This document shows positions 7,317-37,282 of a DNA stretch of 64,000 nucleotides, piece after piece. The translations under genes and the position numbers were made by a program. The notes below the pieces were generated by a model, which worked only from the letters and a program-made list of their open reading frames with translations, was not told where the DNA came from and ran no database searches. The stretch is taken from positions 11,377,337-11,441,336 of the forward strand of contig CM082586.2 in the NCBI GenBank assembly GCA_040954595.2, in the 5' to 3' direction. Origin of the DNA: Balanoglossus misakiensis (lineage: Eukaryota; Animalia; Hemichordata). Each line of letters opens with the position of its first letter. The stretch's first letter is position 1.

Positions 7317-8012
7317 GTAATAACCTGACCAACAGTGACTAGTATATCCTGTGTGTTATACAGTACTTCTCACAAGGTTGAAGTACATGTAGACTGTTGA
7401 TGATTTTTTGCAATTCTTCAGAAACTTACAATACAGAGTCTAATGTGGTAACGTCCTTGGTCACATTCAGAACTACCTAGTCTATGCCCGGCAGTGTTCT
7501 GTCCGCTTTGCTTCCAAAACTAATGTCTGGCCTCACTCATGCCACTTGCCCAATAAACTAATACCCCTTGCTGGGAATTATGATGTAACTAGCGTCGCTT
7601 TGAAGCCTATCACATTACTGAACAGTGTTGATTTGGTGTAAGATTATAGTGAAGGCAGGGCTTATTACATTGAAAATGCTACCCAACCTTAATTACACGT
7701 ATGTATATCATTTGTCTAATCATTGGAAAAACAATGTACATGTACCAAAGACTAAGTAGCTATTTGAAGGTGAATCGCAAGTGGGCACTTTCATTACTTA
7801 ACCTCAAGCAGTCGGTAAGCTACCGTATACTAAGACAAACATTCCTGGTGTAATTAACATCACTGTCATTAGTAATATCTATCTCCAATCAGTATCAGTT
7901 CTGCCATTATGTTATTTTAAGTCAATTGTCAAGGTTCATGTACATATATTACAGCTTAACTGTCTTGTCAAAAACTTACGCATGTACATGTACCTAATTC
8001 TAGGCTTACCTG

Positions 8013-8287
8013 TAGGGTTAGAGATACAGTGTTTTATATTAATATGCATTAATATGAAACTAAAATTTGATGGTTAATTTAAGACCCCCCTGAGCAATGG
8101 TAACCTCGTTAAATATGTGCATATCTAATTCTAGGCTATTCAGCTGAAGTAGAAACCTGGACATGGACAACTTCGGGGTCAAAATCTTTTGACAAACATT
8201 TGTGTGATCTTGGGTAAACTTTGACCTACATTCCTATATTTTAGCATCCGGAGCAGATACAACCTTGACACTTGGAGTGATGGAACT
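8013..8287 (+). repeat. Left arm of ~275-bp inverted repeat (partner 8924-9197); degenerate copy of the ~240-bp Helentron-core family
   Basis: ccttgacacttggagtgatggaact (~8263-8287) is the reverse complement of agttccatcactccaagtgtcaagg (8924); gggttagagatacag matches ctgtatctctaaccc (9183-9197). Confidence 0.85.
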
Positions 8288-8923
8288 ATTTGATTGAGTA
8301 TTATGTCTTGCCTCATTAATTATGTACTTACCTAATGCCAGCCTAACCAATAGGGCTGGAAGTCTGGCTTTTTGGACATGATAAATTTGAGATCAACATT
8401 TTTCTACAGCAGCCAGCCTTCTCTTAAAAAGAATGGACAATATAAAGGCTTTGATGGTATACTGAACTTTTGACTCCCTCCCTGAGACTGTGTGCCAATG
8501 ACGGGATAGCCTACTCAGCGTTGGGTAGATCCTAAGAAGGCCTCAGCCAGGCATCAAATACAAAAAGCAGAAATCCAAGCTTTAATGGTGGGTTACATCG
8601 TTAACTTCCCTGCAGAGCTGATTTCTCAGACTGTGAGCCAATGACGGGTAAAGCCCCTAGGTAGGGGCCACCTAAGACAGGCTGGTCATGCTTTAATCAC
8701 AAAGAAGGGCAAGTTCAGTCTTACCACAACTTTGTCTGCTGTATATGCTTCATAAAGATTGCAGAGTATTTTGAGAATACATTGTGTTAAGGCAGTGTGA
8801 CCAGCTAAAAAGTACTGGCAAACACAGCCAATGTGTAATGAAAAACATCTAATTTGGCTGAATAAAAGACATAAAACACAGCAAAAGCACTGTGACTAGC
8901 TGAGACATAATACTCCATTATGC

Positions 8924-9197
8924 AGTTCCATCACTCCAAGTGTCAAGGATGTATCTGTGCCGGATGCCAAGATATAGGAATGTAGGTCAAAGTTTACCCA
9001 AGATCACCCAACATTTTGTCATAAGATTTTGACCCCAAAGTTGTCCATGTCCAGGTTTCTACCGCAACTGGATAGCCTAGAATTAGATATGTACATATTT
9101 AATGAGGTTACCATGGATCAAGGCAGTCCTAAGTAAACCATCAAATTTTTAGTTTCATGTTAATTCATGTAAATATAAAACGCTGTATCTCTAACCC
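8924..9197 (-). repeat. Right arm of ~275-bp inverted repeat
   Basis: Reverse complement of 8013-8287 with scattered mismatches. Confidence 0.85.
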
Positions 9198-10523
9198 ACT
9201 GGTATGCCATTCTGTGTTTCATGCTACCCAATATGGGTAAGTAGGTAAAAAGTCACCCTAGGCCATTTGAAATTTTCCTGAAAAAATCTCGTCTCTTACA
9301 TATGTACATTTGGTAAAAGGGAAATTTTAATCACGGAGTAGAACATATTCATAAAAAATATTTGAGGGAAAGAAGGAAGTTTTTCATAGCTTTGGTGCTT
9401 CAAATAGTAGAGAGGTTCCCTTGTTATCCTTAGACTCAAACTCAGAGTTTCCAATCTTTCAGTATTTTCATGATATTACTTTCCATCTTAGATTTGTTCA
9501 TCTAAACAAACTGACTGATAGGTATACATGAACATTTTATTGACTAATGAATGTGCCTGTATGTTGCCATTTAAAAAAGTCAGATATTAAACGAGCGCCA
9601 CACCTGTTTTAATCAGCCTCCATATGGAGGGTACACATCGCAGAGAGATGACAAACCCCATGCAAATTCAAGTAATATGGCTCAATGTTGCTGATTTTAA
9701 AGGATAGGTGGATGATTTGAAAAATGTTATTGTGGAAAAAGATGTGTAAAATTTGGCAGCTTGTGAGGCTTTAATTGTAAAATCTTTGAAATGTGTTTTA
9801 CTCTTTAGGTCCAATTTCGTATATGTCAATATACCATTGGGACCAATGTGAAATTGTTCTAAACTCAGAAACTCAAGAAGGTACTGGTCAGATTGCTTTA
9901 GAAATTGGTGTGTATTTATGTTATTGAGACTTTATACAGATTTTGTTTTTCATTTTTGAAGTATATTTTTGGGGTGATTTTGGTCGTCATATACTCAGAA
10001 ACCTCTACCCACATTTTTTTTAAAATTTGGTTTGCATGTTCTTAGGTGTGATTTTATGACAATTTAACAAACCCAGTGATGGAAGTGACAATATTGTTTT
10101 TTTTTTTTTTGGCAATTTCTGCCATTTTTGTCTGATTGCTTTGCAATTTAGTTTGCAGTTTCTAGGGAATTCTTACTGTGGTGCACAAAATTCACAAAGG
10201 TGATTTACTATCCTCATGCGCTTTGTTGAACTGGCACCCTGTTGCAAAACAGACATTACAACACTCTTTGAATTGAATTCATAGCTACCAATTTTTCGGG
10301 GGTGTAGCACCTTTTTTATGCCTAAAACTTTGATCGAGAACTTCAAATTAAATGCAACCCTCCAAATATTTGCAATATTTCAGGTAAAATGATATAATTT
10401 TAAAGCATAAATTTTGATGTATTCATAATCATTAAGAGAAACACATTTTGAAAATAGAATATTAATCACACTAGCAGTTATAATACTTTTGAATCATCAC
10501 TAAAGAACATATAGAAAAATTAA

Positions 10524-11266
10524 ACAGGTTTTAATTTTTTATATTTGAACGCAAAGCGTAAATTCCCTTGTGCCATGGAATTGACAATCTGCAACTGGTG
10601 GGGTCCTTCTGCCAGTAAAAAGCATCAGATAAATTCTGCATGCTCATCACCGAGGCAATTTAGGTGTACTTTTGTACTTTGAGAACTGTCGGTTTTCGCA
10701 ACTGAAACTCTGTTCACAGGACAGAGGAAAAACTAGAATGACAACAGCTATGTAAGCTAACAAAAGGAACACAGAGCATAGTTCTCCATACTCACATTTT
10801 AATGCAATAATTTTTGCTGAAACTGGGGCGTCCGTGGGCAGGCAAAGGCAGTTCTAACTCGACTTGCAAATAAGGCCCATGTCTCTTGTTCACTGAGATT
10901 GTCTGGTTGTAATAATAGCTGTAAGAACTTGATCATTGACCGAACTGTTGGTTCAATTTTGCAACAATTTATGATTTCAAGCTGTGCAATATTTGCAACT
11001 CAGTTTCAACTTTGGTTGGAGGGATGATGATGAAGCCATTTCACTGACAAAATAGCGCTACTGACTGATGTCAATGTTTGTTTACAGTCAAATGCATTGC
11101 CATCATAAAAATACATGTGAGAAATTTCTTATGTGTATGATACACACTTTTGTGCATGACTGCAAACTCTGTTACAGTTGTGAAATTCTATGGGTTGAAT
11201 TCATTGGGTAGAATTCATGTTTTTTGGATTCTTAAACAACCAGTCACGAAAGCTAAGTGGTTACCT
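10524..11266 (-). repeat. Right arm of ~740-bp inverted repeat
   Basis: Reverse complement of 4965-5702. Confidence 0.9.
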
Positions 11267-12934: not shown

Positions 12935-15900
12935 TAGCTCTGCATGGCCTGGTTAATCAATGTTGACGCAAAGGTTGACCCCACCAAACACTCAAAATTA
13001 ATGGGCACGACACTGGCCACTAGCTCTGCATGGCCTGGTTAATCAATGTTGACGCAAAGGTTGACCCCACCAAACACTCAAAATTAATGGGCACGACACT
13101 GGCCACTAGCTCTGCATGGCCTGGTTAATCAATGTTGACGCAAAGGTTGACCCCACCAAACACTCAAAATTAATGGGCACGACACTGGCCGCTAGCTCTG
13201 CATGGCCTGGTTAATCAATGTTGACGCAAAGGTTGACCCCACCAAACACTCAAAATTGATGGGCACGACACTGGCCGCTAGCTCTGCATGGCCTGGTTAA
13301 TCAATGTTGACGCAAAGGTTGACCCCACCAAACACTCAAAATTGATGGGCACGACACTGGCCGCTAGCTCAGCATGGCCTGGTTAATCAATGTTGACGCA
13401 AAGGTTGACCCCACCAAACACTCAAAATTAATGGGCACGACACTGGCCGCTAGCTCTGCATGGCCTGGTTAATCAATGTTGACGCAAAGGTTGACCCCAC
13501 CAAACACTCAAAATTGATGGGCACGACACTGGCCGCTAGCTCTGCATGGCCTGGTTAATCAATGTTGACGCAAAGGTTGACCCCACCAAACACTCAAAAT
13601 TGATGGGCACGACACTGGCCACTAGCTCTGCATGGCCTGGTTAATCAATGTTGACGCAAAGGTTGACCCCACCAAACACTCAAAATTGATGGGCACGACA
13701 CTGGCCACTAGCTCTGCATGGCCTGGTTAATCAATGTTGACGCAAAGGTTGACCCCACCAAACACTCAAAATTGATGGGCACGACACTGGCCACTAGCTC
13801 TGCATGGCCTGGTTAATCAATGTTGACGCAAAGGTTGACCCCACCAAACACTCAAAATTGATGGGCACGACACTGGCCACTAGCTCTGCATGGCCTGGTT
13901 AATCAATGTTGACGCAAAGGTTGACCCCACCAAACACTCAAAATTGATGGGCACGACACTGGCCACTAGCTCTGCATGGCCTGGTTAATCAATGTTGACG
14001 CAAAGGTTGACCCCACCAAACACTCAAAATTGATGGGCACGACACTGGCCACTAGCTCTGCATGGCCTGGTTAATCAATGTTGACGCAAAGGTTGACCCC
14101 ACCAAACACTCAAAATTGATGGGCACGACACTGGCCACTACCTCTGCATGGCCTGGTTAATCAATGTTGACGCAAAGGTTGACCCCACCAAACACTCAAA
14201 ATTGATGGGCACGACACTGGCCACTAGCTCTGCATGGCCTGGTTAATCAATGTTGACGCAAAGGTTGACCCCACCAAACACTCAAAATTGATGGGCACGA
14301 CACTGGCCACTAGCTCTGCATGGCCTGGTTAATCAATGTTGACGCAAAGGTTGACCCCACCAAACACTCAAAATTGATGGGCACGACACTGGCCACTAGC
14401 TCTGCATGGCCTGGTTAATCAGGGTTGACGCAAAGGTTGACTCCACCAAACACTCAAAATTGATGGGCACGACACTGGCCACTAGCTCTGCATGGCCTGG
14501 CTAATCAAGGTTGACGCAAAGGTTGACCCCACCAAACACTCAAAATTGATGGGCACGACACTGGCCACTAGCTCTGCATGGCCTGGCTAATCAAGGTTGA
14601 CGCAAAGGTTGACCCCACCAAACACTCAAAATTGATGGGCACGACACTGGCCACTAGCTCTGCATGGCCTGGTTAATCAATGTTGACGCAAAGAATGACC
14701 CCACCAAACACTCAAAATTGATGGGCACGACACTGGCCACTAGCTCTGCATGGCCTGGTTAATCAATGTTGACGCAAAGGTTGACCCCACCAAACACTCA
14801 AAATTGATGGGCACGACACTGGCCACTAGCTCTGCATGGCCTGGCTAATCAAGGTTGACGCAAAGGTTGACCCCACCAAACACTCAAAATTGATGGGCAC
14901 GACACTGGCCACTAGCTCTGCATGGCCTGGCTAATCAATGTTGACGCAAAGAATGACCCCACCAAACACTCAAAATTGATGGGCACGACACTGGCCACTA
15001 GCTCTGCATGGCCTGGTTAATCAATGTTGACGCAAAGGTTGACCCCACCAAACACTCAAAATTGATGGGCACGACACTGGCCACTAGCTCTGCATGGCCT
15101 GGTTAATCAATGTTGACGCAAAGGTTGACCCCACCAAACACTCAAAATTGATGGGCACGACACTGGCCACTAGCTCTGCATGGCCTGGTTAATCAATGTT
15201 GACGCAAAGGTTGACCCCACCAAACACTCAAAATTGATGGGCACGACACTGGCCACTAGCTCTGCATGGCCTGGTTAATCAATGTTGACGCAAAGGTTGA
15301 CCCCACCAAACACTCAAAATTGATGGGCACGACACTGGCCACTAGCTCTGCATGGCCTGGCTAATCAAGGTTGACGCAAAGGTTGACCCCACCAAACACT
15401 CAAAATTGATGGGCACGACACTGGCCACTAGCTCTGCATGGCCTGGCTAATCAAGGTTGACGCAAAGGTTGACTCCACCAAACACTCAAAATTAATGGGC
15501 GCGACACTGGCCACTAAGCTCTGGCATGGCTAATCAATGTTGACGCAAGGGTTGACCCCACCAAACACTCAAAATTGATGGGCGCGACACTGGCCACTAG
15601 CTCTGGCCTGGCTAATCAAGGTTGACGCAAGGGTTGACCCCACCAAACACTCAAAATTAATGGGCGCGACACTGGCCACTAGATCTGGCCTGGCTAATCA
15701 AGGTTGACGCAAGGGTTGACCCCACCAAACACTCAAATTTAATGGGCGCGACACTGGCCACTAGCTCTGGCCTGGCTAATCAATGTTGACGCAAGGGTTG
15801 ACCCCACCAAACACTCAAAATTGATGGGCACGACACTGGCCACTAGCTCTGGCCTGGCTAATCAATGTTGACGCAAGGGTTGACCCCAGCAAACACTCAA

Positions 15901-18900
15901 AATTGATGGGCACGACACTGGCCACTAGCTCTGGCCTGGCTAATCAAGGTTGACGCAGGGTTGACCCCAGCAAACACTCAAAATTAATACGCGCGACACT
16001 GGCCACTAAGCTCTGGCCTGGCTAATCAATGTTGACGCAAGGGTTGACCCCACCAAACACTCAAAATTGATGGGCACTACACTGGCCACTAGCTCTGGCC
16101 TGGCTACTCAAGGTTGACGCAAGGGTTGACCCCACCAAACACTCAAAATTAATACACGCGACACTGGCCACTAAGCTCTGGCCTGGCTAATCAATGTTGA
16201 CGCAAGGGTTGACACCACCAAACACTCATAATTGATGGGCACGACACTGGCCACTAGCTCTGGCTGGCTAATCAAGGTTGACGCAAGGGTTGACCCCACC
16301 AAACACTCAAAATTGATGGGAACGACACTGGCCACTAACCTCTGGCCTGGCTAATCAATGTTGACGCAAAGGTTGACCCCACCAAACACTCAAAATTGAT
16401 GGGCACGACACTGGCCACTAGCTCTGGCCTGGCTAATCAATGTTGACGCAAGGGTTGACCCCACCAAACAGTCAAAATTGATGGGCACGACACTGGCCAC
16501 TAGCTCTGGCCTGGCTAATCAATGTTGACGCAAATGTTGACCCCACCAAACACTCAAAATTGATGGGCACAACACTGGCCACTAGCTCTGGCCTGGCTAA
16601 TCAATGTTGACGCAAGGGTTGACCCCACCAAACACTCAAAATTGATGGGCACGACACTGGCCACTAGCTCTGGCCTGGCTAATCAATGTTGACGCAAGGG
16701 TTGACCCCACCAAACACTCAAAATTGATGGGCACGACACTGGCCACTAGCTCTGGGCTGGCTAATCAATGTTGACGCAAAGGTTGACCCCACCAAACACT
16801 CAAAATTGATGGGCACGACACTGGCCACTAGCTCTGGCCTGGCTAATCAAGGTTGACGCAAAGGTTGACCCCACCAAACACTCAAAATTAATGGGCACGA
16901 CACTGGCCACTAGCTCTGCCTGGCCTGGCTAATCAATGTTGACGCAAAGGTTGACCCCACCAAACACTCAAAATTAATGGGCACGACACTGGCCACTAGC
17001 TCTGGGCTGGCTAATCAATGTTGACGCAAAGGTTGACCCCACCAAACACTCAAAATTAATGGGCACGACACTGGCCACTAGCTCTGGGCTGGCTAATCAA
17101 TGTTGACGCAAAGGTTGACCCCACCAAACACTCAAAATTAATGGGCACGACACTGGCCACTAGCTCTGCATGGCCTGGCTAATCAAGGTTGACGCAAAGG
17201 TTGACCCCACCAAACACTCAAAATTGATGGGCACGACACTGGCCACTAGCTCTGCATGGCCTGGCTAATCAAGGTTGACGCAAAGGTTGACCCCACCAAA
17301 CACTCAAAATTGATGGGCACGACACTGGCCACTAGCTCTGCATGGCCTGGCTAATCAAGGTTGACGCAAAGGTTGACCCAACAAAAACACTCAAAATTGA
17401 TGGGCACGACACTGGCCACTAGCTCTGCATGGCCTGGCTAATCAAGGCCTGGCTAATCAAGGTTGACGCAAAGGTTGACCCCACCAAACACTCAAAATTG
17501 ATGGGCACGACACTGGCCACTAGCTCTGGCCTGGCTAATCAAGGTTGACGCAAAGGTTGACCCCACCAAACACTCAAAATTGATGGGCACGACACTGGCC
17601 ACTACCTCTGCATGGCCTGGCTAATCAAGGTTGACGCAAAGGTTGACCCCACAAAAACACTCAAAATTGATGGGCACGACACTGGCCACTAGCTCTGCAT
17701 GGCCTGGCTAATCAAGGTTGACGCAAAGATTGACCCCACCAAACACTCAAAATTGATGGGCACGACACTGGCCACTAGCTCTGCATGGCCTGGCTAATCA
17801 AGGCCTGGCTAATCAAGGTTGATGCAAAGGTTGACCCCACCAAACACTCAAAATTGATGGGCACGACACTGGCCACTAGCTCTGCATGGCCTGGCTAATC
17901 AAGGTTGACGCAAAGGTTGACCCCACCAAACACTCAAAATTGATGGGCACGACACTGGCCACTAGCTCTGCATGGCCTGGCTAATCAAGGTTGACGCAAA
18001 GGTTGACTCCACCAAACACTCAAAATTAATGGGCGCGACACTGGCCACTAAGCTCTGGCATGGCTAATCAATGTTGACGCAAGGGTTGACCCCACCAAAC
18101 ACTCAAAATTGATGGGCGCGACACTGGCCACTAGCTCTGGCCTGGCTAATCAAGGTTGACGCAAGGGTTGACCCCACCAAACACTCAAAATTAATGGGCG
18201 CGACACTGGCCACTAGATCTGGCCTGGCTAATCAAGGTTGACGCAAGGGTTGACCCCACCAAACACTCAAATTTAATGGGCGCGACACTGGCCACTAGCT
18301 CTGGCCTGGCTAATCAATGTTGACGCAAGGGTTGACCCCACCAAACACTCAAAATTGATGGGCACGACACTGGCCACTAGCTCTGGCCTGGCTAATCAAT
18401 GTTGACGCAAGGGTTGACCCCAGCAAACACTCAAAATTGATGGGCACGACACTGGCCACTAGCTCTGGCCTGGCTAATCAAGGTTGACGCAAGGGTTGAC
18501 CCCAGCAAACACTCAAAATTAATACGCGCGACACTGGCCACTAAGCTCTGGCCTGGCTAATCAATGTTGACGCAAGGGTTGACCCCACCAAACACTCAAA
18601 ATTGATGGGCACTACACTGGCCACTAGCTCTGGCCTGGCTACTCAAGGTTGACGCAAGGGTTGACCCCACCAAACACTCAAAATTAATACACGCGACACT
18701 GGCCACTAAGCTCTGGCCTGGCTAATCAATGTTGACGCAAGGGTTGACACCACCAAACACTCATAATTGATGGGCACGACACTGGCCACTAGCTCTGGCT
18801 GGCTAATCAAGGTTGACGCAAGGGTTGACCCCACCAAACACTCAAAATTGATGGGAACGACACTGGCCACTAACCTCTGGCCTGGCTAATCAATGTTGAC

Positions 18901-21568
18901 GCAAAGGTTGACCCCACCAAACACTCAAAATTGATGGGCACGACACTGGCCACTAGCTCTGGCCTGGCTAATCAATGTTGACGCAAGGGTTGACCCCACC
19001 AAACAGTCAAAATTGATGGGCACGACACTGGCCACTAGCTCTGGCCTGGCTAATCAATGTTGACGCAAATGTTGACCCCACCAAACACTCAAAATTGATG
19101 GGCACAACACTGGCCACTAGCTCTGGCCTGGCTAATCAATGTTGACACAAGGGTTGACCCCACCAAACACTCAAAATTGATGGGCACGACACTGGCCACT
19201 AGCTCTGGCCTGGCTAATCAATGTTGACGCAAGGGTTGACCCCACCAAACACTCAAAATTGATGGGCACGACACTGGCCACTAGCTCTGGCCTGGCTAAT
19301 CAATGTTGACGCAAGGGTTGACCCCACCAAACACTCAAAATCGATGGGCACGACACTGGCCACTAGCTCTGGGCTGGCTAATCAATGTTGACGCAAAGGT
19401 TGACCCCACCAAACACTCAAAATTAATGGGCACGACACTGGCCACTAGCTCTGGGCTGGCTAATCAATGTTGACGCAAAGGTTGACCCCACCAAACACTC
19501 AAAATTAATGGGCACGACACTGGCCACTAGCTCTGCATGGCCTGGCTAATCAATGTTGACGCAAATGTTGACCCCACCAAACACTCAAAATTGATGGGCA
19601 CGACACTGGCCTCTAGCTCTGCATGGCCTGGCTAATCAATGTTGACGCAAATGTTGACCCCACCAAACACTCAAAATTGATGGGCACGACACTGGCCACT
19701 AGCTCTGCATGGCCTGGTTAATCAATGTTGACGCAAAGGTTGACCCCACCAAACACTCAAAATTGATGGGCACGACACTGGCCACTAGCTCTGCATGGCC
19801 TGGTTAATCAATGTTGACGCAGAGGTTGACCCCACCAAACACTCAAAATTGATGGGCACGACACTGGCCACTAGCTCTGCATGGCCTGGTTAATCAATGT
19901 TGACGCAGAGGTTGACGCCACCAAACACTCAAAATTAATGGGCACGACACTGGCCACTAGCTCTGCATGGCCTGGTTAATCAATGTTGACGCAAAGGTCG
20001 ACGCCACCAAACACTCAAAATTAATGGGCACGACACTGGCCACTAGCTCTGCATGGCCTGGTTAATCAATGTTGACGCAAAGGTCGACCCCACCAAACAC
20101 TCAAAATTAATGGGCACGACACTGGCCACTAGCTCTGCATGGCCTGGTTAATCAATGTTGACGCAAAGGTTGACCCCACCAAACACTCAAAATTGATGGG
20201 CACGACACTGGCCACTAGCTCTGGCCTGGCTAATCAATGTTGACGCAAGGGTTGACCCCACCAAACACTCAAAATTGATGGGCACGACACTGGCCACTAG
20301 CTCTGGCCTGGCTAATCAATGTTGACGCAAGGGTTGACCCCACCAAACACTCAAAATTGATGGGCACGACACTGGCCACTAGCTCTGGGCTGGCTAATCA
20401 ATGTTGACGCAAAGGTTGACCCCACCAAACACTCAAAATTGATGGGCACGACACTGGCCACTAGCTCTGCATGGCCTGGTTAATCAATGTTGACGCAGAG
20501 GTTGACGCCACCAAACACTCAAAATTAATGGGCACGACACTGGCCACTAGCTCTGCATGGCCTGGTTAATCAATGTTGACGCAAAGGTCGACGCCACCAA
20601 ACACTCAAAATTAATGGGCACGACACTGGCCACTAGCTCTGCATGGCCTGGTTAATCAATGTTGACGCAAAGGTCGACCCCACCAAACACTCAAAATTAA
20701 TGGGCACGACACTGGCCACTAGCTCTGCATGGCCTGGTTAATCAATGTTGACGCAAAGGTTGACCCCACCAAACACTCAAAATTGATGGGCACGACACTG
20801 GCCACTAGCTCTGGCCTGGCTAATCAATGTTGACGCAAGGGTTGACCCCACCAAACACTCAAAATTGATGGGCACGACACTGGCCACTAGCTCTGGCCTG
20901 GCTAATCAATGTTGACGCAAGGGTTGACCCCACCAAACACTCAAAATTGATGGGCACGACACTGGCCACTAGCTCTGGGCTGGCTAATCAATGTTGACGC
21001 AAAGGTTGACCCCACCAAACACTCAAAATTAATGGGCACGACACTGGCCACTAGCTCTGGGCTGGCTAATCAATGTTGACGCAAAGGTTGACCCCACCAA
21101 ACACTCAAAATTAATGGGCACGACACTGGCCACTAGCTCTGGGCTGGCTAATCAATGTTGACACAAAGGTTGACCCCACCAAACACTCAAAAATTAATGG
21201 GCACGACACTGGCCACTAGCTCTGCCTGGCCTGGCTAATCAATGTTGACGCAAAGGTTGACCCCACCAAACACTCAAAATTGATGGGCACGACACTGGCC
21301 ACTAGCTCTGCATGGCCTGGCTAATCAAGGTTGACGCAAAGGTTGACCCCACCAAACACTCAAAATTGATGGGCACGACACTGGCCACTAGCTCTGCATG
21401 GCCTGGCTAATCAATGTTGACGCAAATGTTGACCCCACCAAACACTCAAAATTGATGGGCACGACACTGGCCACTAGCTCTGCATGGCCTGACTAATCAA
21501 TGTTGACGCATATGTTGACCCCACCAAACACTCAAAATTGATTGGCACGACACTGACCACTAGCTCTG
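12935..21568. repeat. 86-bp satellite (with 82-bp variant lacking CATG), about 100 head-to-tail copies
   Basis: Unit tagctctgcatggcctggttaatcaatgttgacgcaaaggttgaccccaccaaacactcaaaattgatgggcacgacactggccac; starts at 12935, 13021 and so on; no unique spacers. Confidence 0.98.
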
Positions 21569-21605
21569 CACTACAGCCCAGTGTGCGCCATCTTTGTCCG
21601 ATATT
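21569..21605 (+). repeat. Left TIR (13 bp + 11-bp spacer + 13 bp)
   Basis: CACTACAGCCCAG-tgtgcgccatc-TTTGTCCGATATT. Confidence 0.8.
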
Positions 21606-21687
21606 TCCGTCCCTACTTTCATGGCCTCATGAATAATGTATGAGGCGATTTGTTACCGGCAATGGAACGTTCGCCAGTTACAACAAC

Positions 21688-24600
21688 ATGAAAATGCCGG
21701 TAAGTATTACAAGACATTAAACGCATTTATAATGTTTACATCACGTTATCATATTCGTTAAGGTCTTAAGCTAGTATTGTCATCATTCTCTGATTTCTAT
21801 TCATTTAATTTCACTGAAAATCTGACCTGGTTTCAAATCGCTATCATTGGTAACTATGTAAACAAAGAACATAGCAACCACAACCAAGACAGAAAAACGG
21901 CCGAAAAAATCAAATCTTAATGCATTATTCAAAATTTCAAAACCATGAGAGTGTTCCTAAGACGTTTGTAACTCAGTGTTTTGATTTTCTATCCCCAAAA
22001 AGGTCATATGTAGAAATTGATCCAAGCAGAAATTCATCGAGTTTGGCGCGTTCTGCCTGCGCGTCGCTCTACCATTGATTACAATGGCACAGCTACGCAA
22101 ATGTCGACCATCAGGCAAAACATATCGGCAGATTTCTCGAGTTTGAAGCGTGAACCTAAAAAACCAAAACGAGCAGATTGTTCCTTGATATCTATATAAC
22201 ATGTTGATATATCATTTTCGTTCTAAAATGTAAGAGTAAATATTTTGAACGAGAGAGTTCTTGCGACAGCGCTTTGAACGCCGCGCGCGTACAGCGTTTA
22301 GGCAAAGCAGACGCACACAGAAGGAACTGCGTCCACGCGCAATATACGTAGATTGCAGCTGATTATACTCAATCAATGTTCCGGTACTTGCAACAGTATG
22401 CCAGTACTTCGCAAAATACACAGTCTTTTATATCATCAGGTCTTCTGTAGCGTCATTAAATACTGTCTGTTTGGAACTGTTTGACTGAAACAGCTTTCTA
22501 GATGACCTTTTATGTTTTCTACAACTTTTCACATTTATTCACATTTAGGAAATGCTCCATTGTGTAACTCCATCCCAGCTGTGCTCTGGATATAACTCAA
22601 ATCATGCCTAACAGGAAAAGGACAAACCATTTTGACATCGGGCAGTATGCAGTCCAACAAAAAAAGCCAGAGAAATAGCTAGAGACATACAACTTCAACA
22701 GCTGTTAGATGCTGAGTTAGCTGCAAAGACACTGCCAGAAAAGGTTAAGAGCAAGTCAGAGAATAGATACAAGCTAGGGGCATGGGCAAGAGAGAGAAAG
22801 CGTAGACGTGAGGAAGAGGTAGCTCAGTACAGAGAGAAAATGCAGAAATTAGATGCAAAGAGGAGACTAGTCGACAGGGCCAGTAAGCAACTAAACAGGC
22901 TAGCAAAGAAGCAAAGGAGATTAGCTGGAAATAGGGTTAAGCTTAATCAGGAGGTAAGGTAATTATATAGAAGGAATTTAGCTTCATTTCAGATTTTCAC
23001 AAGATTTATGATTACAAACAGAATAGGAAAATATCCACCAAATTAAAGTTTGTATACTTTAAATTATATTACAACTAAGTGAATCATAAAACATTTTGAC
23101 CTTGCTTTAATGTATATGATATGATTTTATGTGTGTTTGTTTTCTAAATTCTGAACTACAGCTTTGAAACACCTCCCTGCTTGACCTTGGCATAACACTG
23201 GGGTTTCCATTTATGCATATTGCTTGCTCATGTGACATTGCCTCTCTGTTTGACCTTGGCATGACACTGGGATTTCCATTCATGTGTATTGCTTGATCAT
23301 GTGATATTCTCTCTCTGTTTGACCTTGGCATGACACTGGGGTTTCCATTCATGTGTATTGCTTGCTCATGTGACATGGCCTCCATGTTTGACCTTGGCAT
23401 GACACGTGGGTTTCCATTTATGTGTATTGCTTGCTCATGTGACATGGCCTCCATGTTTGACCTTGGCATGACACTGGGGTTTCCATTTATGTGTATTGCT
23501 TGCTCATGTGACATGGCCTCCATGTTTGACCTTGGCATGACACTGGGATTTCCATTCATGTGTATTGCTTGATCATGTGATATTCTCTCTCTGTTTGACC
23601 TTGGCATGACACTGGGGTTTCCATTCATGTGTATTGCTTGCTCATGTGACATGGCCTCCATGTTTGACCTTGGCATGACACTGGGGTTTCCATTCATGTG
23701 TATTGCTTGCTCATGTGACATTGCCTACCTGTTTGACCTTGGCATGACAATGAAAATCTGTTTTGTATTCATTTATTAAAGATTGCAGATTTGACATCCC
23801 CAAAGAAACAGAAGTGGGTTCATAAAAGCAGCCAGGTTTGTGCTAATAACAGTGAATGCCTCACACTGTCCAGAAGTCAGCAACATGAACGCAGAAGTCA
23901 GACTCTTCATGCAGCTACAGTCATACACCAGTCATCATCAGGAACAGATATATCTGCAGGGAGACATGTCAGTGCAAATCCACCAAAATCAGCTCTTGAT
24001 GGGCTATGGTATACTTTGATCAACAGTGCCACTCCACGTCAAATGGAAAAGTACCTTCAATCATCAATGAAAATAAATGAATTGGTCATACCAACTTTGA
24101 TAAAGAAATCAATATCTGAATTTGAGAAAAGTGAAGGTAATTTGACTAGGAGTGTGCAAGTGTTGTATCAGAATGGGGTTTTGTCAAAACGCAAATACAA
24201 TGCCTTACGTAATAGTGAGTTGAATCTGTCTAAATTAAAACAACCTAGAAAAGTGTTGCAATTTCACTTTAGGTGTAACATACCAAGGTTACTTTCCTAC
24301 AACAAGGTCACTGAATATACACGTGGTTTAGATATAGGAAGTCTTGAACCAATTGTAACAGATGCAAACAAAGTAGTGGGTATGAAGCGAAATACAGAGC
24401 AGATGCTCTTTAAAGTTGCTGACATGTATCTTTGCTTGAGTGAGCACCACCCTAACATCCTAAATTGGTTTGGCAAACCGAAGGGCACTTTCCAACTTGC
24501 TGTTGGTGCTGATGGGGCTCCTTTTGGAAAATATGGTCAGGCAACTTCCTGGCTTGTCAGTTTCATCAATGTGGGCCACAGATTAGCAAGCCCTGATGAT

Positions 24601-25988
24601 AATTTCTTGTTGCTAGGGGCTAATCTGAAGGAAGATGACCCAGTCCTGATAGATTATGCTAAAAACCTAGCCAAAGAGTTTGAGATCATAGAGGCCAAAC
24701 AATACACTTTACATGGCCTGAGTGTAAAGTTTAATGTATCTTTGCTGCCATTTGATCAAAAGGGATTAGCCTCAGTTTCTGGTGAGTTATCTAATGCTGC
24801 TGAGTATTTCAGTTCCTTTGCTAATGTAACAAAAGGTAGCATAGATGAAATAGGGGCAGATATAGGGCCAGGGAAATTTTGGTCAGAGTGGAGCTATAAG
24901 CAGTGGCAAAATTCAAAGCAAATTTGACAAAGAAAACAGGTAAGCCTGAAACATCGACAGATCGCTCTAAGGTCACACGTTTCATTGCCTCCAGAAAATC
25001 CCGACAGGAATATATTCCACCCCTGGGTAAGTATATACAGTGTGCCAAGATAGAACCCCTACATCTAAAAAACAATGCCTGGCAGTATTTCTTTCAAAGG
25101 CTTCTTACTGATGCTGTGGCTAAGACTGACCAAAAAGTCATTGACCATGGTGTGAAATTAGAAAAGCTACCACCAAATTCATGCCTGTACAAATTCCTGC
25201 ATACACTAAAATATACAGTGAGAGCAGGGAAACTATACAATCAAATTGTCAAATATTTTGCTGAGAATAAGGTTAGTACCCATGCCCAATCAGTGAGAGT
25301 TCACCGCTTTACAGGGGAAGAATCAAGGAAGTTGGCATGGTCTTTTATGTCACTGATAGAGTGTTTTAGGGAACCCGGTATCAGTGCACAGGTGAGAGCG
25401 AAATTGTCCCTGTATGGTTACATTGGTGTCCTACTCAGAGATATAACATCTCTCTGTTCCAGGTTTACCCTACATGAGAGAGATATTGTAGTACTAAGGC
25501 AGAAGTGCAAATGGTACTTCAATTTGCATGCGTTATTTCTGACCGTAAACAATACTATTTGGCATATAGGATATGTTGTTCCGTGTCATGCATCTCAAAT
25601 CCACCAGCAGTTCCAAATGGGGCTTGGGCTTAATACAATGGAGGGCAGGGAGGCAAAACATCAGCGCCTTCTGGAATACAGCAATAATTCCACCCCTCAA
25701 AATAGATGGCCACTAATTTTCAGACATGAGTATGTATTGTTGTACTGGTTACGCATGCGAGACCCCGCTTCAGATAACTACAGGGGGGATGGGAGGTCAA
25801 ATGCCTCCAAAGTAATAAAGTACATCCCAGACAAATGCTTTGATGACCCATCATACTGTTATTGTGGGAATGTAAAGGAAGAGTTGTCAAATTCCTGTGA
25901 AATATGCAGCAGTGAATTTATGTCAGAAATAAAACAGTCTGCAATTAGTGGTAAGATCTCAAAAAAACTAAAAAAAATAATGAAATAA
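21688..25988 (+). pseudogene. Spliced RAG1-core/Transib-like DDE transposase; predicted exons 21688-21699, 22549-22953, 23782-25988; two nonsense codons in exon 2 and a frameshift near 24903
   Basis: Phase-0 GT-AG junctions (ccg|gtaagt, tttag|gaa, gag|gtaagg, taaag|att). Motifs AVGADGAPFG, LPFDQKGLASVSGELS, IEPLHLKNNA, RFTGEESRKL, GLGLNTMEGREAKH parallel, in order, RAG1 ESCDGMG, GYDEKLVREVEGLE, IDALHCDIGNA, RMNGNFARKL, SIGAWASEGNESGN. Exons 1-2 are less certain than the core. Confidence 0.78.
23177..23748. repeat. 69-bp minisatellite (~8 copies) inside predicted transposase intron 2
   Basis: Unit tttgaccttggcatgacactggggtttccattcatgtgtattgcttgctcatgtgacatggcctccatg; gives the 23-aa repeat ORF 23107-23721. 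Confidence 0.95.
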
Positions 25989-26408
25989 AATGTGAAAGTT
26001 TGAATTTCATGATTCAAAACAATTATTACTGTACATGAAATGTACCAGATAGTTTTAGATTTGTATATAACTGTAAGAGAGTTTGTTGTAAATAATCTTT
26101 CATTATGAATGTCACAGATTTTGTGCTGCTTGTATTGTATTGTTCAAAATATGTATATAGCTTTTTAATCATCCTTTGAAACTAGCTGCTTATATCAGCT
26201 CTGTAGATAACCATGTTTCAAAATAAGTGAATAAAAACTGAATGATAAATGATTCACCCACAGCTATTCAGTTCCTATAAAACATGTTTTTCTTTTTTAA
26301 TTTTGCTTGGACATGCAACGATGCATGAATTCAAATGGACTGACAAAAAGTAATATAGTCAGTTCCAAGAACATGAAAAAAAATTTCAACAACAGTCTAA
26401 ATATGATT

Positions 26409-27029
26409 TCACAAATGCTGAGCAACACCATGTTTGTTCCAGCATCCAAAATGGAAATGTATTGTCACTGTCTCGGCTGATTTCCTGTATCTGACAATCA
26501 TAGGTTTATCTTCGGTGCAGATAACTTCCACCCGCTTACCCTTTACTGTCTTCACCAGAAGTTGTTGGTTTTCATAGTTGACACCTCTACCCAGCACGTA
26601 ATTCACTTTGTTGATCCAGGTAAATCGAAAGGTAGCAATACATGGAGTTTCCCGATCATAAATTCCCATTGAATTACGGGTAGCGCACTTTCGAAATACA
26701 TCGAAAACTTCCATAGGAACATTCCTACCAAAACTGCACTTCCATGGGTTGCGCACTGAGGGTGATGGCTTCATTCTCTGCATAATTGTTGAGCGCCAGT
26801 GACACATCTCCCGTTCGAATACAGGATACACCGGAATCTGCTGCATCTTCGCAAGCTCCACCATCGTTGCACTACGTTTGCGAACTGTTACATCAACAGC
26901 AGCATCGAGATCATCAAAACAATCATGTAGGTTGATGGAACGGTCGATATTTGTCCTCAATAACTGAAATTTGGCCTCACGCAGCTTACGTTTCACTGTT
27001 TTAGAAACATCGATCATGGACGCCGCCAT
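26409..27029 (-). CDS. 206-aa protein of unknown function, second (convergent) gene of the transposon
   Basis: Uninterrupted non-repetitive ORF, start context caaaATGGCGGCG about 105 bp inside the right end, AT-rich 420-bp gap to the transposase stop; no kelch or PHD pattern seen. Confidence 0.75.
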   Translation of the reverse strand: MAASMIDVSKTVKRKLREAKFQLLRTNIDRSINLHDCFDDLDAAVDVTVRKRSATMVELAKMQQIPVYPVFEREMCHWRSTIMQRMKPSPSVRNPWKCSFGRNVPMEVFDVFRKCATRNSMGIYDRETPCIATFRFTWINKVNYVLGRGVNYENQQLLVKTVKGKRVEVICTEDKPMIVRYRKSAETVTIHFHFGCWNKHGVAQHL

Positions 27030-27097
27030 TTTGTATATACGATGCTAGGAACGTGACCCCAGCATATGACCTCAATTAACATATTTCCGCTTCGCGG

Positions 27098-27134
27098 AAT
27101 AGCGGACAAATGAACACACTTCTGGGCCGCAGTG
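27098..27134 (-). repeat. Right TIR (13 bp + 11-bp spacer + 13 bp)
   Basis: Reverse complement reads CACTGCGGCCCAG-aagtgtgttca-TTTGTCCGCTATT. Confidence 0.8.
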
Positions 27135-29721
27135 CTGCATTTTTGGAGTGGTCGAAAGTTTTAACATACAATCAACATGTCATATATGATCAGGGCACCA
27201 AATTCGAAGAACAAAGGTTTTTTTATTTTTTTTCTAAAAATGACATTTTCAAGGAAAATTTGGTAAAACGCAATTTCGTCTGCAGTGAGCCAAATTAGAC
27301 TGTATTTTGTGGAATTTGTATCGATATATACATACGAAGAGCATTCTATACTCCATCAGATTTCCGAAAATGTAGAAAACAGGTATTTTTTGTAATTTTC
27401 AAAAATTTACCATTTTGACCAAATTGTGGCTAAAATTGTTATTTTCGTGTTGAATGCCGCCAGTGTCACTGCTTTTAAAAGTCATCAAAACTTTTAACAT
27501 ACAAGCAATTGTTTATATATGATCAGGTCACCGAATTAAAAAAATAAAGAATGTTTTCCCTAAAAATGACCTTTTTGGTGCAAAAACGAATAAAACGCAA
27601 TTTTGTATTAAATCAGCTCATTCAGAGTGCATTTTTTATAATCAGCACCATTTTTTACATATAATGGAAATTTCATACATCATCAGATATCCAAATATGA
27701 AAAAATGATTTAGATTTTAGATGATTGTCCAAAATTAGCTGATATCTAATAAATGTAGTATTGAACCGTTCCGTCCCCCCCCCCCTACATTATATGCGGT
27801 ACGCCGATGTCAGCTTACCCGGCAGTACTGCAGGCCGTGCCGCCAACTAACGTCGGTGTTTGAAACGCCCTGGTTAAATTCGGGCTCTCTCTATAAATTG
27901 ACAGGCAATAATGCAGTCCTACCCGAACAAATGTCGAGTGTTGACCCGCTGTGACTTTCCCTCTTCGGTTTGCCCGACTTAGCCAACGTCTTTGTACTAG
28001 AGTGTCGGGTCTTTTGCAGAGCCAGGCCGAAGGAAATCCGAGTAGATCAACGTGGTCTCTGTACGCGTGTTTCTGCTCTAGAGTGTCGGGTCTTTTGCAG
28101 AGCCAGGCCTAAGGAATTCCGACTTGATCAACGTTGCTAACGAACGCTAGTGTCTGTCATGGTGTGCCGGGGTTTTAGTCGAGCCAGGCCGTAGGAGATC
28201 TGACTTGATCATCGTGGTCAATGTACGCGTGTTTCCGCTCTAAAGTGCCGGGGCTTCAGCTAAACCAGGCCGTAGGAAATCCGACGTAATCACCGTTGAT
28301 AACTTCCGCCAGTCTGTGTCATATAGAGCCGGTGCACCAGCCGAGTCACGCCGTAGGAAATCTGACTTGATCAACGTGGTCAATGTACGCCTGTTTCTGC
28401 TCTAGAGTGCAGGGGCTTCAGCTAAACCAGGCCGTAGGAAATCCGACGTAATCACCGTTGATAACTTACGCCAGTCTGTGTCATATAGAGCCGGTGCACC
28501 AGCCGAGTCACGCCGTAGGAAATCTGACTTGATCAACGTGGTCAATGTACGCCTGTTTCTGCTCTAGAGTGCCGGGGCTTCAGCTGAGCCAGGCCGTAGG
28601 AAACCCGACGTGATTACCGTTGTTAACTTACGCCAGTCTGTGTCCTATATGTAGTGCCGGGGCATCAGCCGTGCCAGGCCGAAGGAAATGTGAGTAGATC
28701 ATCGTGGTCTCTGTACGCGTGTTTCTGGTCTATAGTGCCAGGGCTTTAGCCAAGCCATGCCGTAGGAAATATGACTTGATCAACGTTGCTTACTAACGCT
28801 AGTGTCTGTCATAGTGTGCCGGGGTTTTAGTCGAGCCAAGCCGTAGGAGATCAGACTTGATCAACGTGCTCTCTGTACGCGTGTTTCTGCTCCAGAGTGC
28901 CGGGGCTTTATCCAAGCCATGCCGTAGAAAATCTGACTTGATCACCGTTGCTAACGTACGCTAGTGTCTGTCATATTGTGACGGAGATTTAGCCGAGCCA
29001 GGCAGAAGAAAAATCGACTTGTTCAACGTTAACAGTGTGCAACTGTTTCTGCTCTAGAGTGTCAGGGTTTTAGCCGACTTATGCTGTAGGAAATCTGAGT
29101 TGATGAACGGGAATTCAATGTTAGAAAACCCGTGTGGAAAGTATCTCTACCCGTTTGAAACTAAGAAAAGAATTTATTCTTATTTATTTTGTAAAAAAGA
29201 CAATTTTTCGAGAGAAAAAAAGTCGAAAATGGTAATTTTGTCTTGGGTGATTCAAATTATACCGCCTTTTCTGGAATTTGCAGCACTTTTTACAGAGAAC
29301 GACACTTCATGCTCCGTAATATTTCCGAAAATGAAGAAAACAGTTAATGTTTTATGATTTTTTAAAAATTTACCATTTTTGTCAAAATTTGGCCAAAATG
29401 GCTATTTTTTCTTGAATTCCGTCAATATCTCTGCATTTTTGGAGTGGTCGAAAGTTTTAACATACAATCAACATGTCATATATGATCAGGGCACCAAATT
29501 TGAAGAACAAAGGTTTTTTTATTTTTATTTCTAAAAATGACATTTTCAAGGAAAATTTGGTAAAACGCAATTTTGTCTGCAGTGAGCCATATTAGACTGT
29601 CTTTTTTGGAATTTGTATCGATATATACATACGATAAGCATTTTATACTCCATCAGATTTTCGAAAATGTAGAAAACGGGTATTTTTTGTAATTTTCAAA
29701 AATTTACCATCTTGCCCAAAT

Positions 29722-30221: not shown

Positions 30222-33028
30222 TCAAATAGAGAGATCCGATATTCGTACTCGAGCGGCAACTGCAGAGTCTCTGACAGGTCGTCTCGGGGGTACAACATCC
30301 GCCTTCACCGAGGAATCTTCAGAGGCTCCAGCTGTGTCGACTGTTTCAGTATTCGTGTTGGAATCTGCTCCAATACCTGTATTATCTCCAGACACAGTTG
30401 ACAGCTCCTTGGAGACAACTTCCAATGGGTACAATTTATGGATAGGTCGGTTTGTAGGACCACCTGCGGTGTTCAACTCCGCAGATCGTACCAGTTTATT
30501 ATTACCGAAGATCAACCTTGTTACAGTTCCTAAATGCCATTTCGGACGTTTGTCAGTGTCACTGTGTATTATCACGACATCTCCGACCTTGATGACATTA
30601 TCACGAGTTCCTTTGGTGGGATGTCGTTCACGTAGGGCAGTCAGATACTCGGACGACCATCTTCGCCAAAATTGATCGTGTAATCTTGATAGATGTTCAT
30701 ATCTTTTGTTGATTTCACGATTATCACAGTAAGATGGGTCAATCACCTCCTCGTCGGTGATCTCGATGTACGGCAATGAGGTCAGTGTCCTGCCATGTAG
30801 CAAGTGATTTGGGGTCAATCCAATGTTGTCGTTTATACTAAATGACACGTACGTTAACGGCCTGTCGTTTAAAACGGCTTCAATTTCAGTCACAACTGTT
30901 GCGAGTTCATCAAAGGTTAGGTAAGCTCGACCGAGAGTTTTCCTAATAGCGTTCTTTGTCAAAGCAATCAGCCTCTCCCAGAAGCCACCAAACCAGGGCG
31001 CGCGCTTCGGTATAAACGTCCATTGTACACGGTGTGCGGCGAGAAAGTCATTTACTTCTGGCGTATCAAACAGTGTTTTGATTTCATTGGCAGCCGATAA
31101 ATAAGTCGATGCGTTGTCTGACAGCATCCTACTCGGCAAAGAACGTCTCGCGGCGAATCTTCTGAACGCGTGCATGAACGTCTGGGTTGACATATCAGGA
31201 ACCAGTTCTAGGTGAATGGCACGCGTCACCGCACAGGTGAATAAACAGATATAGGCTTTGGCACGTGTCCCATCTTTGGCCTTGGTATAAAGATGACCCG
31301 TGAAATCCACGCCTGTTACAGTAAATGCTGGGACAATGTTCACTCGATAACTTGGTAGCGGCGCTTGCACTGGATTCGCGTAAGGTTTCCCGGTAACTTT
31401 GTTGCAAATGACACAACCACGTAAGACACCGCGTACAATAATCTGAATTTTGGGGATCCAATATCTTTGCCTTATCTGTGTCACTGTAGATTGGACTCCC
31501 TGGTGAAGCGTCAGTTCGTGTGATTTCCGTATTATCAAATTTGTCAATTTATGATGCGAGGGTATCAAGGCGGGAAATCTTGTGACGAAATCGATCGGCG
31601 CGTTATGGATTCTACTCCCACAGCGAAGTACGTCTTCTTCGTCAACAAATAAGTTCAGTTGTCGAACAATGGGCGCACATTTACTCAAGTTCAATTTCAC
31701 AGACTGGATTTCGGCGTCATAGAACTGCCGTTGAATATGTTTAACCCACATATTTTCCGCTCGGTGCAGCTCATCAGGGGTAATTCTCCCGTGTTTCACC
31801 TCGGTAGATTTTTTCATCCGTGCGATGAATCTGAGGACATAACTTGTCACTCGTAATAGCCTATCCAAGTTGTTGAATCTGGAAATGTCAACAACGTGTT
31901 GAATTCCGTAGTCATTGGGACTGGTAATTTCCAGATTTTCGCGATCTGTACATCGTCTGGCTTTGGGGGGAGCGAGTATTTCTGCCTTCTCGGTAGACTG
32001 ATCGTTGATTCCGTTGCCGAAACGCGGCGGCAATCTGTCCGTCTCATCTGGTTCGATTGCGGTATGCATCACATTAACATCAAACGCTGGGCAACTAGGC
32101 CAATCGCTTGTCTTTAGCCATGTTGGTCCATTACGCCATAGTTCAGAGCGTTCCATCATTTCGTAGGTTACCCCTCTGGTTAAAAGATCAGCTGGGTTGT
32201 GTTCTGATGGGCAGTATTTCTTTGTGGACTGAAATTCGCGAATTTCATCTACTCGATTCTTCACAAACACCGGAAGTCTCTTCTCACTGTTCAGCCAGTG
32301 AAGGACAATTTGGCTGTCACTCCATAAATAACAACGAACTATGTCATATTTGGAGGACAGGGCTTCTTTAGCGTACTTGCTGAGACGTGTGGCTATTAAC
32401 GCAGCCATCAATTCCAGTCGCGGGAGTGTAGTTTCAGCCACTGGTGCGGTTCTAGTCTTCGCCATCACAAACGACGTTTGCTGTCCTCTTTTCAAATACA
32501 CTACTGCCCCATACGCTCTCTGGCTTGCGTCTGCAAAGGCGTGTAGCTCGCATTCATTGTCGCCTTCAAGTTCATCAAAATATTGTCGTTCGATCTTCGT
32601 GTTTCGCGAGTCTTTGAGATCTTCTGCGATGTGCATCCATTGAGTGTAGAGATCTGCGTTGATAGGTTCATCCCAGTCTAATTCCAGTTTCCATAGTAAC
32701 TGAATGAACAATTTGGCTTTGATCATTACAGGGGCGAGAAATCCAAACGGATCAAATAGCATCGCCACATAGCTGACAATGTCACGTTTGGTCACGAGTT
32801 CGGCACGCGACGACATATTAACCACTTTGGAGTAAGTCAATTCGTCAGATTTTGTTGACCACTGCATTCCCAAAACGGATACATCTTCGGTGGGTTCGTT
32901 CAGATTGTCACATGTAGCGAGTTCGTTTATTTGTTGACAGTTGGAAGACCATGCTCTGAGTTTGAATCCGCCTGATGTCATCAACTCATTGGCTTCATGG
33001 TAGTATTTCATGGAGTTTTCTGCAGTAT
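30222..33028 (-). pseudogene. pol: BEL/Pao pol C-terminal part: end of RT, RNase H, integrase
   Basis: GGFKLRAWSSN, HAFADASQRAYGA, TLPRLEL, NPADLLTRG, H..H..CVIC zinc finger, GVDFTG, SDNASTY, GGFWERL; separated from the N-terminal part by a LINE insertion. Confidence 0.93.
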
Positions 33029-34465
33029 GTTTTTATTTTATTTATTTATTACACAGATCAACGGGCAAACCCACTTACAGATCTGGAAAACAATAAAAAC
33101 AATTAAGTCACAAAACAAAAATTAACTGAAAAACAAGACACCAAAAAAGTAACACATGTCACGTAAAATATAAATACAAATCAAGGAACAGTACCATTAA
33201 AATGACTGGATAAAATAGATTTAAAACTGTGGAGCGTAGAAAAAATATCAATATTACATTTAGAAGAAATCTCATTAAAAGCAGACATGCATCTGAGCAT
33301 TGTCGAGAATTTTCTACAATTAACGGAGCGCAAATCGGGTTTAAAAAGGGGTTTCTTGCGTAAATTTCTACTAGGGGCGTAAAAACATATTTGATTTAAA
33401 ATACCAGGTGAATCATACTGTGAGTGGATAATTTTGTATAAAAAAAACATGTCAAGGGTGAGTCTTCTGTTATATAACATTGGGATATTCAGTAATCTAC
33501 AATAAATAGGGTAGCTGGACCTGCTGCAGTGAATATTGAGTTTGCAACAAATGTACTTCACAAACTTAATTTGTACCCGCTCAATCTTGTCTGACAGGCC
33601 CTTTTGGTGGGGTGACCACACAACAGAGCCATACTCTAGAATAGATCTTACATAAACAAAATATAGAGAAATAATAGCGGATATGTCATTAAAAGGCTGG
33701 CAGAGGCGCTTAATAAAACCCAGAGATTTGAAGGCTCTGGAAACTGTGTTATTTATGTGGAAAGAATAATTGAGATTAGAAGTAAGGTATATGCCCAAGT
33801 CCTTGATTACAGAAACACGTTGAAGGGGAGTGCCATTGATAGAGTAGTCAGTAGATGAAATAACCCTTTTCTTTAGGGTGAAACTGATGAATTTGCATTT
33901 ATTGATATTAGGTGACAACTTCCAGTTGTCACACCAGAGAGCAAATTTATCAAGGTCTTTCTGTAACAAGTCACAATCAGCGGAGGAGGTGATAGTACGG
34001 TAAATCTTAGCATCGTCGGCATACATGCTGAGCTTTGCAGAAATATCTAACAGTGATATATCATTTATATACATTACAAAAAGTAGTGGCCCCAAGAGTG
34101 AACCTTGTGGGACCCCCGATGTAGCAGTGAAGCTGTTTGACGAGTGACTGCCAAACACCACCCTCTGTTGTCTGAGATGGAGATACGACGCCAGCCAGCT
34201 GTGCAAATTGCCACATATACCAAATTTGGCGGCTTTGTACAGCAGTAGTGTGTGACAGACACTGTCAAACGCCTTGCTAAAATCAGTGTAGATTGAATCT
34301 ACCTGTTCTTTGTTGTTCAATGAAGCTGAAATGAAATCAGTGTAAGCCACTAAGTTGGTTGTGGTAGATCTATTTTTAACAAATCCATGCTGATCAATGG
34401 ATATATTTGGTTGAACATGCTGGTAGATATGAGGGACAATGACAGCTTCGAAAATCTTAGCAAAA
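33029..34465 (-). mobile_element. 5'-truncated non-LTR retrotransposon (CR1/L2/Jockey-group RT) inserted in the BEL RT
   Basis: DQHGF, DFSKAFDSV, SGVPQGSLLGPLLF, YADD, DLGI; open to stop at 33181; (TAAA)n tail at 33029-33050; TAT duplicated at 33026-33028 and 34466-34468. Confidence 0.92.
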
Positions 34466-37271: not shown

Positions 37272-37282
37272 CTTGCTCGGTT

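Follow-up and report, generated by a model that had tools for sequence, protein, structure and literature searches.

A two-gene DNA transposon in Balanoglossus misakiensis with CAC-tipped inverted repeats, a transposase predicted to fold like RAG1 and a convergent partner gene unlike RAG2

A stretch of 64,000 nucleotides from the hemichordate Balanoglossus misakiensis (contig CM082586.2; hereafter the window) harbors a DNA transposon of 5566 bp, at 21569-27134, and the two 37-bp motifs at its borders are its terminal inverted repeats (TIRs). The reading preferred here, with a probability of about 0.7, is that of a two-gene transposon: it encodes a DDE enzyme with a predicted RAG1/Transib fold, its transposition is likely of the cut-and-paste type, with a stagger of 3 bases, and a conserved partner gene that is not RAG2 faces the transposase gene. 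The main interest is the lineage, which combines a RAGL-like two-gene layout and 3-bp target-site duplications (TSDs) with the lack of a C(2)C/H(3-4)H zinc motif.

The sole partner of the motif at 21569-21605 is the reversed motif at 27098-27134. When the left end (plus strand) is aligned with the reverse complement of the right end, the outer blocks (21569-21581 and 27122-27134), each with a CAC tip that is likely the cleavage site, agree at 11/13 positions, the middles (21582-21592 and 27111-27121) at 0/11, and the inner blocks (21593-21605 and 27098-27110; on the left a T tract and a GTCCG core) at 12/13. The shared outer block, free middle and inner block of the original prediction were thus reproduced on recomputation. 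The inner-block match runs a few bases beyond the 37-bp motif, with one gap. The inner site had been placed one helical turn away; this describes the gap between the blocks, whereas the block starts lie 24 bp apart, a little over two turns. When the window was resampled 30 times with a first-order Markov model, a CAC-anchored pair as good never appeared; the real window has 14 such rows, the other 13 being long inverted repeats with 7-11/11 middle matches. Read contigs X1 record 1 and X2 record 9 at the left end and X1 record 8 at the right end show zero differing letters in either end, which excludes a base-calling error; X1 and X2 are two runs of one sample, possibly the source of the assembly, and not independent copies. 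No second copy of the element occurs in the window, and the read contigs contain a single locus. Slid by +3, the two window spacers match at 6/11 positions and may therefore descend from one sequence via compensating indels.

Between the ends, the plus strand carries two long frames (23737-24927 and 24900-25988) and, upstream, a short basic frame. P0001, an unnamed protein of Ptychodera flava, shares 65% and 60% identity with the two long frames. Frames and read contigs point to a first coding exon (22604-22953), basic and helical, a putative phase-0 intron (22954-23781) that contains a 69-bp minisatellite (23172-23749), and a main exon (23782-25988) with the DDE core and a C-terminal CxCG-x9-CxxC tail; the splicing is predicted. 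A splice-donor-like site at 21691-21705, ~130 bp inside the left tip, may terminate a short initial exon in the transcript of the transposase. Near 22658, both read sets contain an A that the assembly lacks, which accounts for the apparent frameshift there. The frameshift at about 24898-24899, where the copy is ~22 bp shorter than P0001, is probably real, since X2 record 14 crosses the break without gaps. Owing to this one frameshift, the window copy is probably not active on its own. The sample also contains two or more diverged relatives of the element, represented at lower depth by read contigs over 21820-23168, 24463-24554 and 25617-25748.

A profile search with the transposase family returned 3257 representatives at E<=0.001; besides P0001, named relatives are known from Nematostella, Exaiptasia, Actinostola and Lineus. 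Of 203 relatives in a metagenome scan, the best 80 form 44 groups together with the window. The acidic residues D181 (91/91), D262 (104/104) and E566 (77/78) are conserved, as is a tail C637-x-C639-G...C650-x2-C653, kept in 68-71 of 69-72 rows. With columns assigned to the RAG1 zinc motifs by motif order and not by residue-level superposition, the C(2)C motif is absent (the columns after D262 read Y-F/P-S-S/T-F, with C in 6/107 at most), and of H(3-4)H, H545 alone is conserved before E566 (74/83). One member, L074:243-4394, is apparently intact, spanning 4152 bp with open transposase and partner frames, both TIRs and an ATT duplication. Another complete member, L081:6241-14782, lies within a 294-bp satellite on a contig labelled as an Anaerolineae MAG; it is not a bacterial transposon, as the contig is likely host DNA of an animal that was binned with bacteria.

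Transposase searches of Pfam, PDB sequences and viral contigs returned nothing: 0/29 members match a Pfam transposase family (Transposase_21, 0/29 at E<=0.1), and the profile finds no RAG1 or Transib row among PDB sequences at E<=10. The model of P0001 (pLDDT 93.8), a relative 60-65% identical to the window transposase, gives 49 PDB matches in Foldseek at E<=0.001, and among the matches listed all are RAG1, HzTransib or BbRAGL. The best has an E of 3e-12, 12% identity and TM scores of 0.52/0.63; identities range from 9 to 13%. HzTransib itself matches at 2e-7, and the P element transposase comes next among the matches listed (1.5e-3). Among Atlas models, RAG1 (TM 0.63), Transposase_21 (0.62) and Plavaka (0.59) lie at similar distances. 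The enzyme is predicted from these models to fold like RAG1/Transib, yet it is far from each named family.

The second gene (26409-27029, minus strand, read from the ATG at 27029) is convergent with the transposase gene, intact, and encodes 206 aa; relatives measure 200-270 aa. Its model (pLDDT 84.6) is helical through residue 85 and alpha/beta thereafter. With no Kelch propeller in the model, the predicted protein is not RAG2-like, and Pfam gives no Kelch or PHD match. No homologue was found with the partner sequence alone; a profile retrieves 24 proteins, all with a precomputed PF26709 assignment. Fold searches gave no Foldseek match at E<=0.001, no usable Atlas match, and a best VIA-align Z of 7.5 (none at Z>=8) that involves the N-terminal helices only and barely covers the C-terminal domain. 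Together they amount to an unrecognised fold and not to a demonstrated new one. A complex prediction for the L074 transposase and partner, run without alignments, was uninformative (score 0.00).

A homologue of the partner lies downstream, in convergent orientation, in 31/34 related loci with at least 1500 bp available, as judged with a profile built partly from those same 34 loci. Under the preferred two-gene reading, the partner would likely be a cofactor or regulator in transposition. It may instead be a passenger, or cargo that manipulates the host, and take no part in the reaction of transposition, a possibility given the lesser weight here: the protein shows no RAG2 likeness, 3/34 loci are without the gene, and cargo genes (TET/JBP) are described for other DNA transposons in the available part of PMC12730594. 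A cargo gene is harder to reconcile with the fixed position and orientation in 31/34 loci, since families with the partner gene are only 35-45% identical in the transposase, or with the purifying selection and co-inheritance of the gene. In the two unsaturated pairs of 11, dN lies well below dS (0.053/0.17 and 0.186/0.744), which indicates purifying selection. The partner and transposase distance matrices correlate (Spearman 0.49, 0/2000 permutations, 14 elements), but kin inherit both genes together, so the correlation denotes co-inheritance only.

Across the family, the ends start with CACGCYGGG, and CAC occupies positions 1-3 in 34/34 ends, which were themselves chosen by a CAC pattern. Ten related pairs, including two joined from separate contigs of a single group, have a mean left-right identity of 0.95 at positions 1-13, 0.64 at 14-24, 0.61 at 25-37 and 0.31 at 38-50. 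Left and right agree at positions 29, 30 and 31 in 11, 9 and 10 of 11 pairs, and at 27 and 28 in 3 and 4; likewise, the cross-family information is 0.7-0.9 bits at 29-31 vs. 0.1-0.2 at 27-28. The AA of the RSS nonamer at positions 34-35 is absent from the window (TA/TA) and present in 1/26 ends. The TIRs of the family are thus imperfect and 31-37 bp long: the tip is strongly conserved, the middle tolerates change, and a second, weaker peak follows at a near-fixed distance.

The original prediction read these termini as a symmetric, bipartite RSS-like signal with a free 11-bp spacer, and asked how spacer length relates to conservation among relatives. Spacer length is nearly fixed: the best offset of the inner block, scored in 13 pairs, is solely 0 in 8, a tie that includes 0 in 2, +1 in 2 and -8 in 1, that is, 0 or +1 in 12/13 with ties counted. 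In most relatives the inner block is therefore equidistant from both tips, as expected from the symmetric form. The middle is not consistently free, with 0, 1, 2, 4, 5, 5, 6, 7, 8, 9, 10, 10 and 11 matches of 11 in the 13 pairs, the window being lowest. The CAC-tipped ends of a transposon with a predicted RAG1 fold stand, whereas a sequence-free spacer as a design rule is not supported; the left spacer of the window also holds a YY1 consensus. The data point only weakly to a distinct second site, the middle being no less conserved than the inner block in the 10-pair mean.

An ordinary continuous, imperfect TIR of ~35 bp, the outcome that the original prediction had named as its refutation, is a tentative alternative, somewhat doubtful. 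Here the middle of the window copy would reflect drift plus small compensating indels, as its match at offset +3 allows, and the tip alone would matter for cutting. The near-equal means of middle and inner block fit this reading, as do the continuous TIRs of three of the 13 pairs (L061, L017 and L039/L023; 10-11/11 middle matches) and the statement, in the available text of PMC7204232, that just the initial 16-17 bp are essential for ProtoRAG cleavage. However, drift should not leave 0/11 flanked by 11/13 and 12/13, the dip of the window recurs in L003 (1/11), L069 (4/11), L063 (5/11) and L060/L055 (5/11), and the information climbs again at 29-31. In the preferred two-gene reading, a transposase dimer would grip both ends symmetrically and cut at the CAC tips, with the outer 9-13 bp as the main recognition site and a weaker second contact near positions 25-33 at a fixed distance. 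The intervening stretch would tolerate change, such that older copies like that of the window look bipartite and others continuous. In L002:34-5744, L017:543-5660, L061:2-4256 and L063:590-7313, the left arm carries an inverted copy, 100-190 bp long, of partner-gene-region sequence from the right arm; the copies are 88-96% identical and often at a similar distance from the tip, which suggests copying between paired ends.

The ends may also serve transcription. The left spacer of the window contains a strict match to CGCCATNTT (21586-21594, plus strand), the YY1 consensus reported within ProtoRAG TIRs in the available part of PMC7481187, and thus a putative YY1 site. A second YY1-type motif (27024-27032, plus strand, from a motif scan) overlaps the partner start codon. 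Such motifs occur within 160 bp of 22/32 family ends (9/16 left, 13/16 right), compared with a mean of 0.13 and a maximum of 2 in base shuffles; this set leaves out four doubtful single ends and adds the two L081 ends. Because the right-end motif overlaps the start codon of the partner, it may reflect the start context there, which would be TISU-like. In the preferred reading, each end likely doubles as the promoter of the adjoining gene, with a YY1-type site that in the window copy falls inside the left spacer.

It is unlikely, though less so than RAGL/ProtoRAG or Transib membership considered below, that the inner block is not a transposase site at all but a host transcription-factor or promoter element of two inward-facing promoters. 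Both ends face a gene, with the partner start codon ~80-130 bp inward of the right tip in relatives, YY1 motifs accompany the ends at the frequency given above, and the TIRs of ProtoRAG, as far as the available text of PMC7481187 describes, drive transcription, their inner TR5 element forming part of a YY1 site. A promoter element, however, need not stay equidistant from both tips, yet the inner block does so in most pairs. Moreover, the YY1 motif usually lies further in (positions 47-60 on the left, 75-129 on the right) and falls within the first 45 bp in 1/32 ends, that of the window.

The family makes 3-bp TSDs and not 5-bp ones. Exact 3-bp duplications flank 6/12 same-contig pairs with flanks (L061, whose contig starts at the element, was left out), and duplications of 4-9 bp flank none. 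For L081, the empty site with n=3 was found in 20 neighbouring satellite units, and those with n=0-2 and 4-6 in 0-1. Of the six pairs that lack a 3-bp TSD, three have a left flank that also borders a TSD-bearing copy, suggestive of chimeric assemblies; in L002, L017 and L019 the TSD is absent and no shared flank explains it. In the window, flank comparison together with the 3-bp rule of the family identifies CTG at 21566-21568 and 27135-27137 (plus strand) as the two copies. The 3-bp duplications of relatives led to the rejection of an alternative in which the TSD would be 5 bp long and a CA repeat collapsed. The window copy is bordered on the left by an 86-bp satellite and on the right by a 2-kb tandem unit, which share 8 bases around CTG; the TSD of the window itself could thus follow a later rearrangement.

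The window is animal-type DNA, rich in satellites and retrotransposons. The 86-bp satellite (102 copies) and the 2-kb tandem unit, with its 81/162-bp array, occupy 12935-21570 and 52932-64000. In a single X2 contig the element is missing, and the satellite runs into the right-flank repeat (window 21484 to 27137) after three extra letters. An excision footprint is a possible but weak interpretation of this joint, which is known from one contig with 27 letters on its short side, is absent from X1, and is anchored on another satellite unit. A second, unrelated element (49612-52931) has TAG..CTA ends, long fold-back arms, a decayed LINE reverse-transcriptase piece and a TCT duplication, and is Academ-like. 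Its position within the 2-kb tandem unit lies one base away from the junction between that unit and the RAG1-fold element, a possible insertion hot spot. A BEL/Pao LTR retrotransposon with three frames (30222-37280, minus strand) is inserted in a 2-kb tandem unit. A DIRS-type element on the minus strand, at 39832-44007, encodes a zinc-knuckle gag, an RT/RNase H with a Dam-like methyltransferase stretch, and a tyrosine recombinase. Further fold-back or MITE-like elements are represented by long inverted repeats at 5091-11135 and 8269-8942.

Like RAGL/ProtoRAG, the element combines an enzyme predicted to be a RAG1-fold DDE transposase with CAC-tipped TIRs, two convergent genes between them, a YY1-type motif near the ends and a cysteine-rich C-terminal tail. 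It differs in having a partner that is not a Kelch-PHD RAG2L, 3-bp TSDs instead of the 5 bp given for RAGL (PMC7204232, available part), equal spacing at both ends vs. 27/31 or 12/23 (27/31 for ProtoRAG TIRs, PMC8289069, available part), and a CxCG-x9-CxxC tail where RAGL has the CTT* motif Cx2Cx3GHx4C. With Transib it shares termini of ~35-38 bp that are mostly symmetric and consist of a conserved tip and a second block, a CAC tip on both TIRs that resembles the Transib CACAGTGGG (available part of the PMC9435367 supplement), and the fold match to HzTransib. Transib termini are described as 38 bp long, with a heptamer, a variable spacer and a nonamer, mostly alike at both ends (PMC1131882, available text), most Transib TIRs are symmetric according to the accessible part of PMC8289069, and within the grouping into subgroups I and II, subgroup II has both symmetric and asymmetric TIRs (PMC9435367). 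An 11/11 symmetric terminus alone is therefore close to what is known of Transib, and its symmetry is not new. Unlike Transib, the element has a second conserved gene and lacks the A-rich nonamer, the zinc motifs and any sequence-profile match.

True membership in RAGL/ProtoRAG or Transib, with an 11/11 RSS-like signal, is very improbable, far more so than the other alternatives. The CAC tips, the RAG1 fold matches and the convergent layout are compatible with it, as are the 3-bp TSDs of some insect Transibs (Nozomi/Hayabusa group; bioRxiv 10.64898/2026.08.26.747230, available part), which are confined, in that part of the account, to elements with TIRs beginning with G. It is opposed by the 3-bp TSDs in place of 5-bp ones, by the absence of C(2)C, H(3-4)H, Cx2Cx3GHx4C and nonamer, by a half-helical partner of 206 aa, and by an identity of ~12% without a profile match, EnSpm-type and Plavaka models being about as close as RAG1.

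The TSD of Chapaev3 is 3 bp, and EnSpm elements carry a second protein too. EnSpm/CACTA also shares the CAC..GTG termini and 3-bp TSD, a criterion given in the available text of PMC12730594, but Transposase_21 resembles the enzyme only at the level of models (TM 0.62) and not in sequence. The CMCT clade (EnSpm/CACTA, Chapaev3, Plavaka, ESTA, Lanisha) is united by 5'-CA..TG-3' ends, TSDs of 2-5 bp, and C(2)C and H(3-4)H motifs (PMC12730594, available part). The element has such ends, a TSD within that range and a DDE triad in a predicted RAG1-related fold, but the zinc motifs said to be common to the whole clade are missing; it further differs by its small convergent partner and by short TIRs with no subterminal repeat array seen. 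Since it fits CMCT by ends, TSD and fold, fails on the zinc motifs, and fails several tests for RAGL and Transib, it is placed as an ally of CMCT and not as a member of RAGL or Transib. The family is likely undescribed: no prior account was found in the literature searched, although Repbase, subscription journals or supplements may carry it under another name.

A broader proposal is more tentative than the two-gene reading itself: the family may represent an undescribed RAG1-fold lineage of superfamily level, widespread in marine invertebrates, in which the core zinc site is lost, the stagger is 3 bp and the enzyme relies on a small partner of unrecognised fold at the place of RAG2. To our knowledge, RAG2 is the sole partner known at that position, and the passage from the single-gene Transib to the RAG1-RAG2 pair is an open question. 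If the proposal is true, the two-subunit RAG-type transposase with YY1-bearing, promoter-active ends would have arisen independently a second time, or the lineage would represent an older state of it. The family offers a natural comparison for the origin of RAG, since it keeps the convergent layout but has another partner, symmetric ends and a TSD that is shorter, and the apparently intact 4.15-kb L074 element makes the family directly testable without reconstruction.
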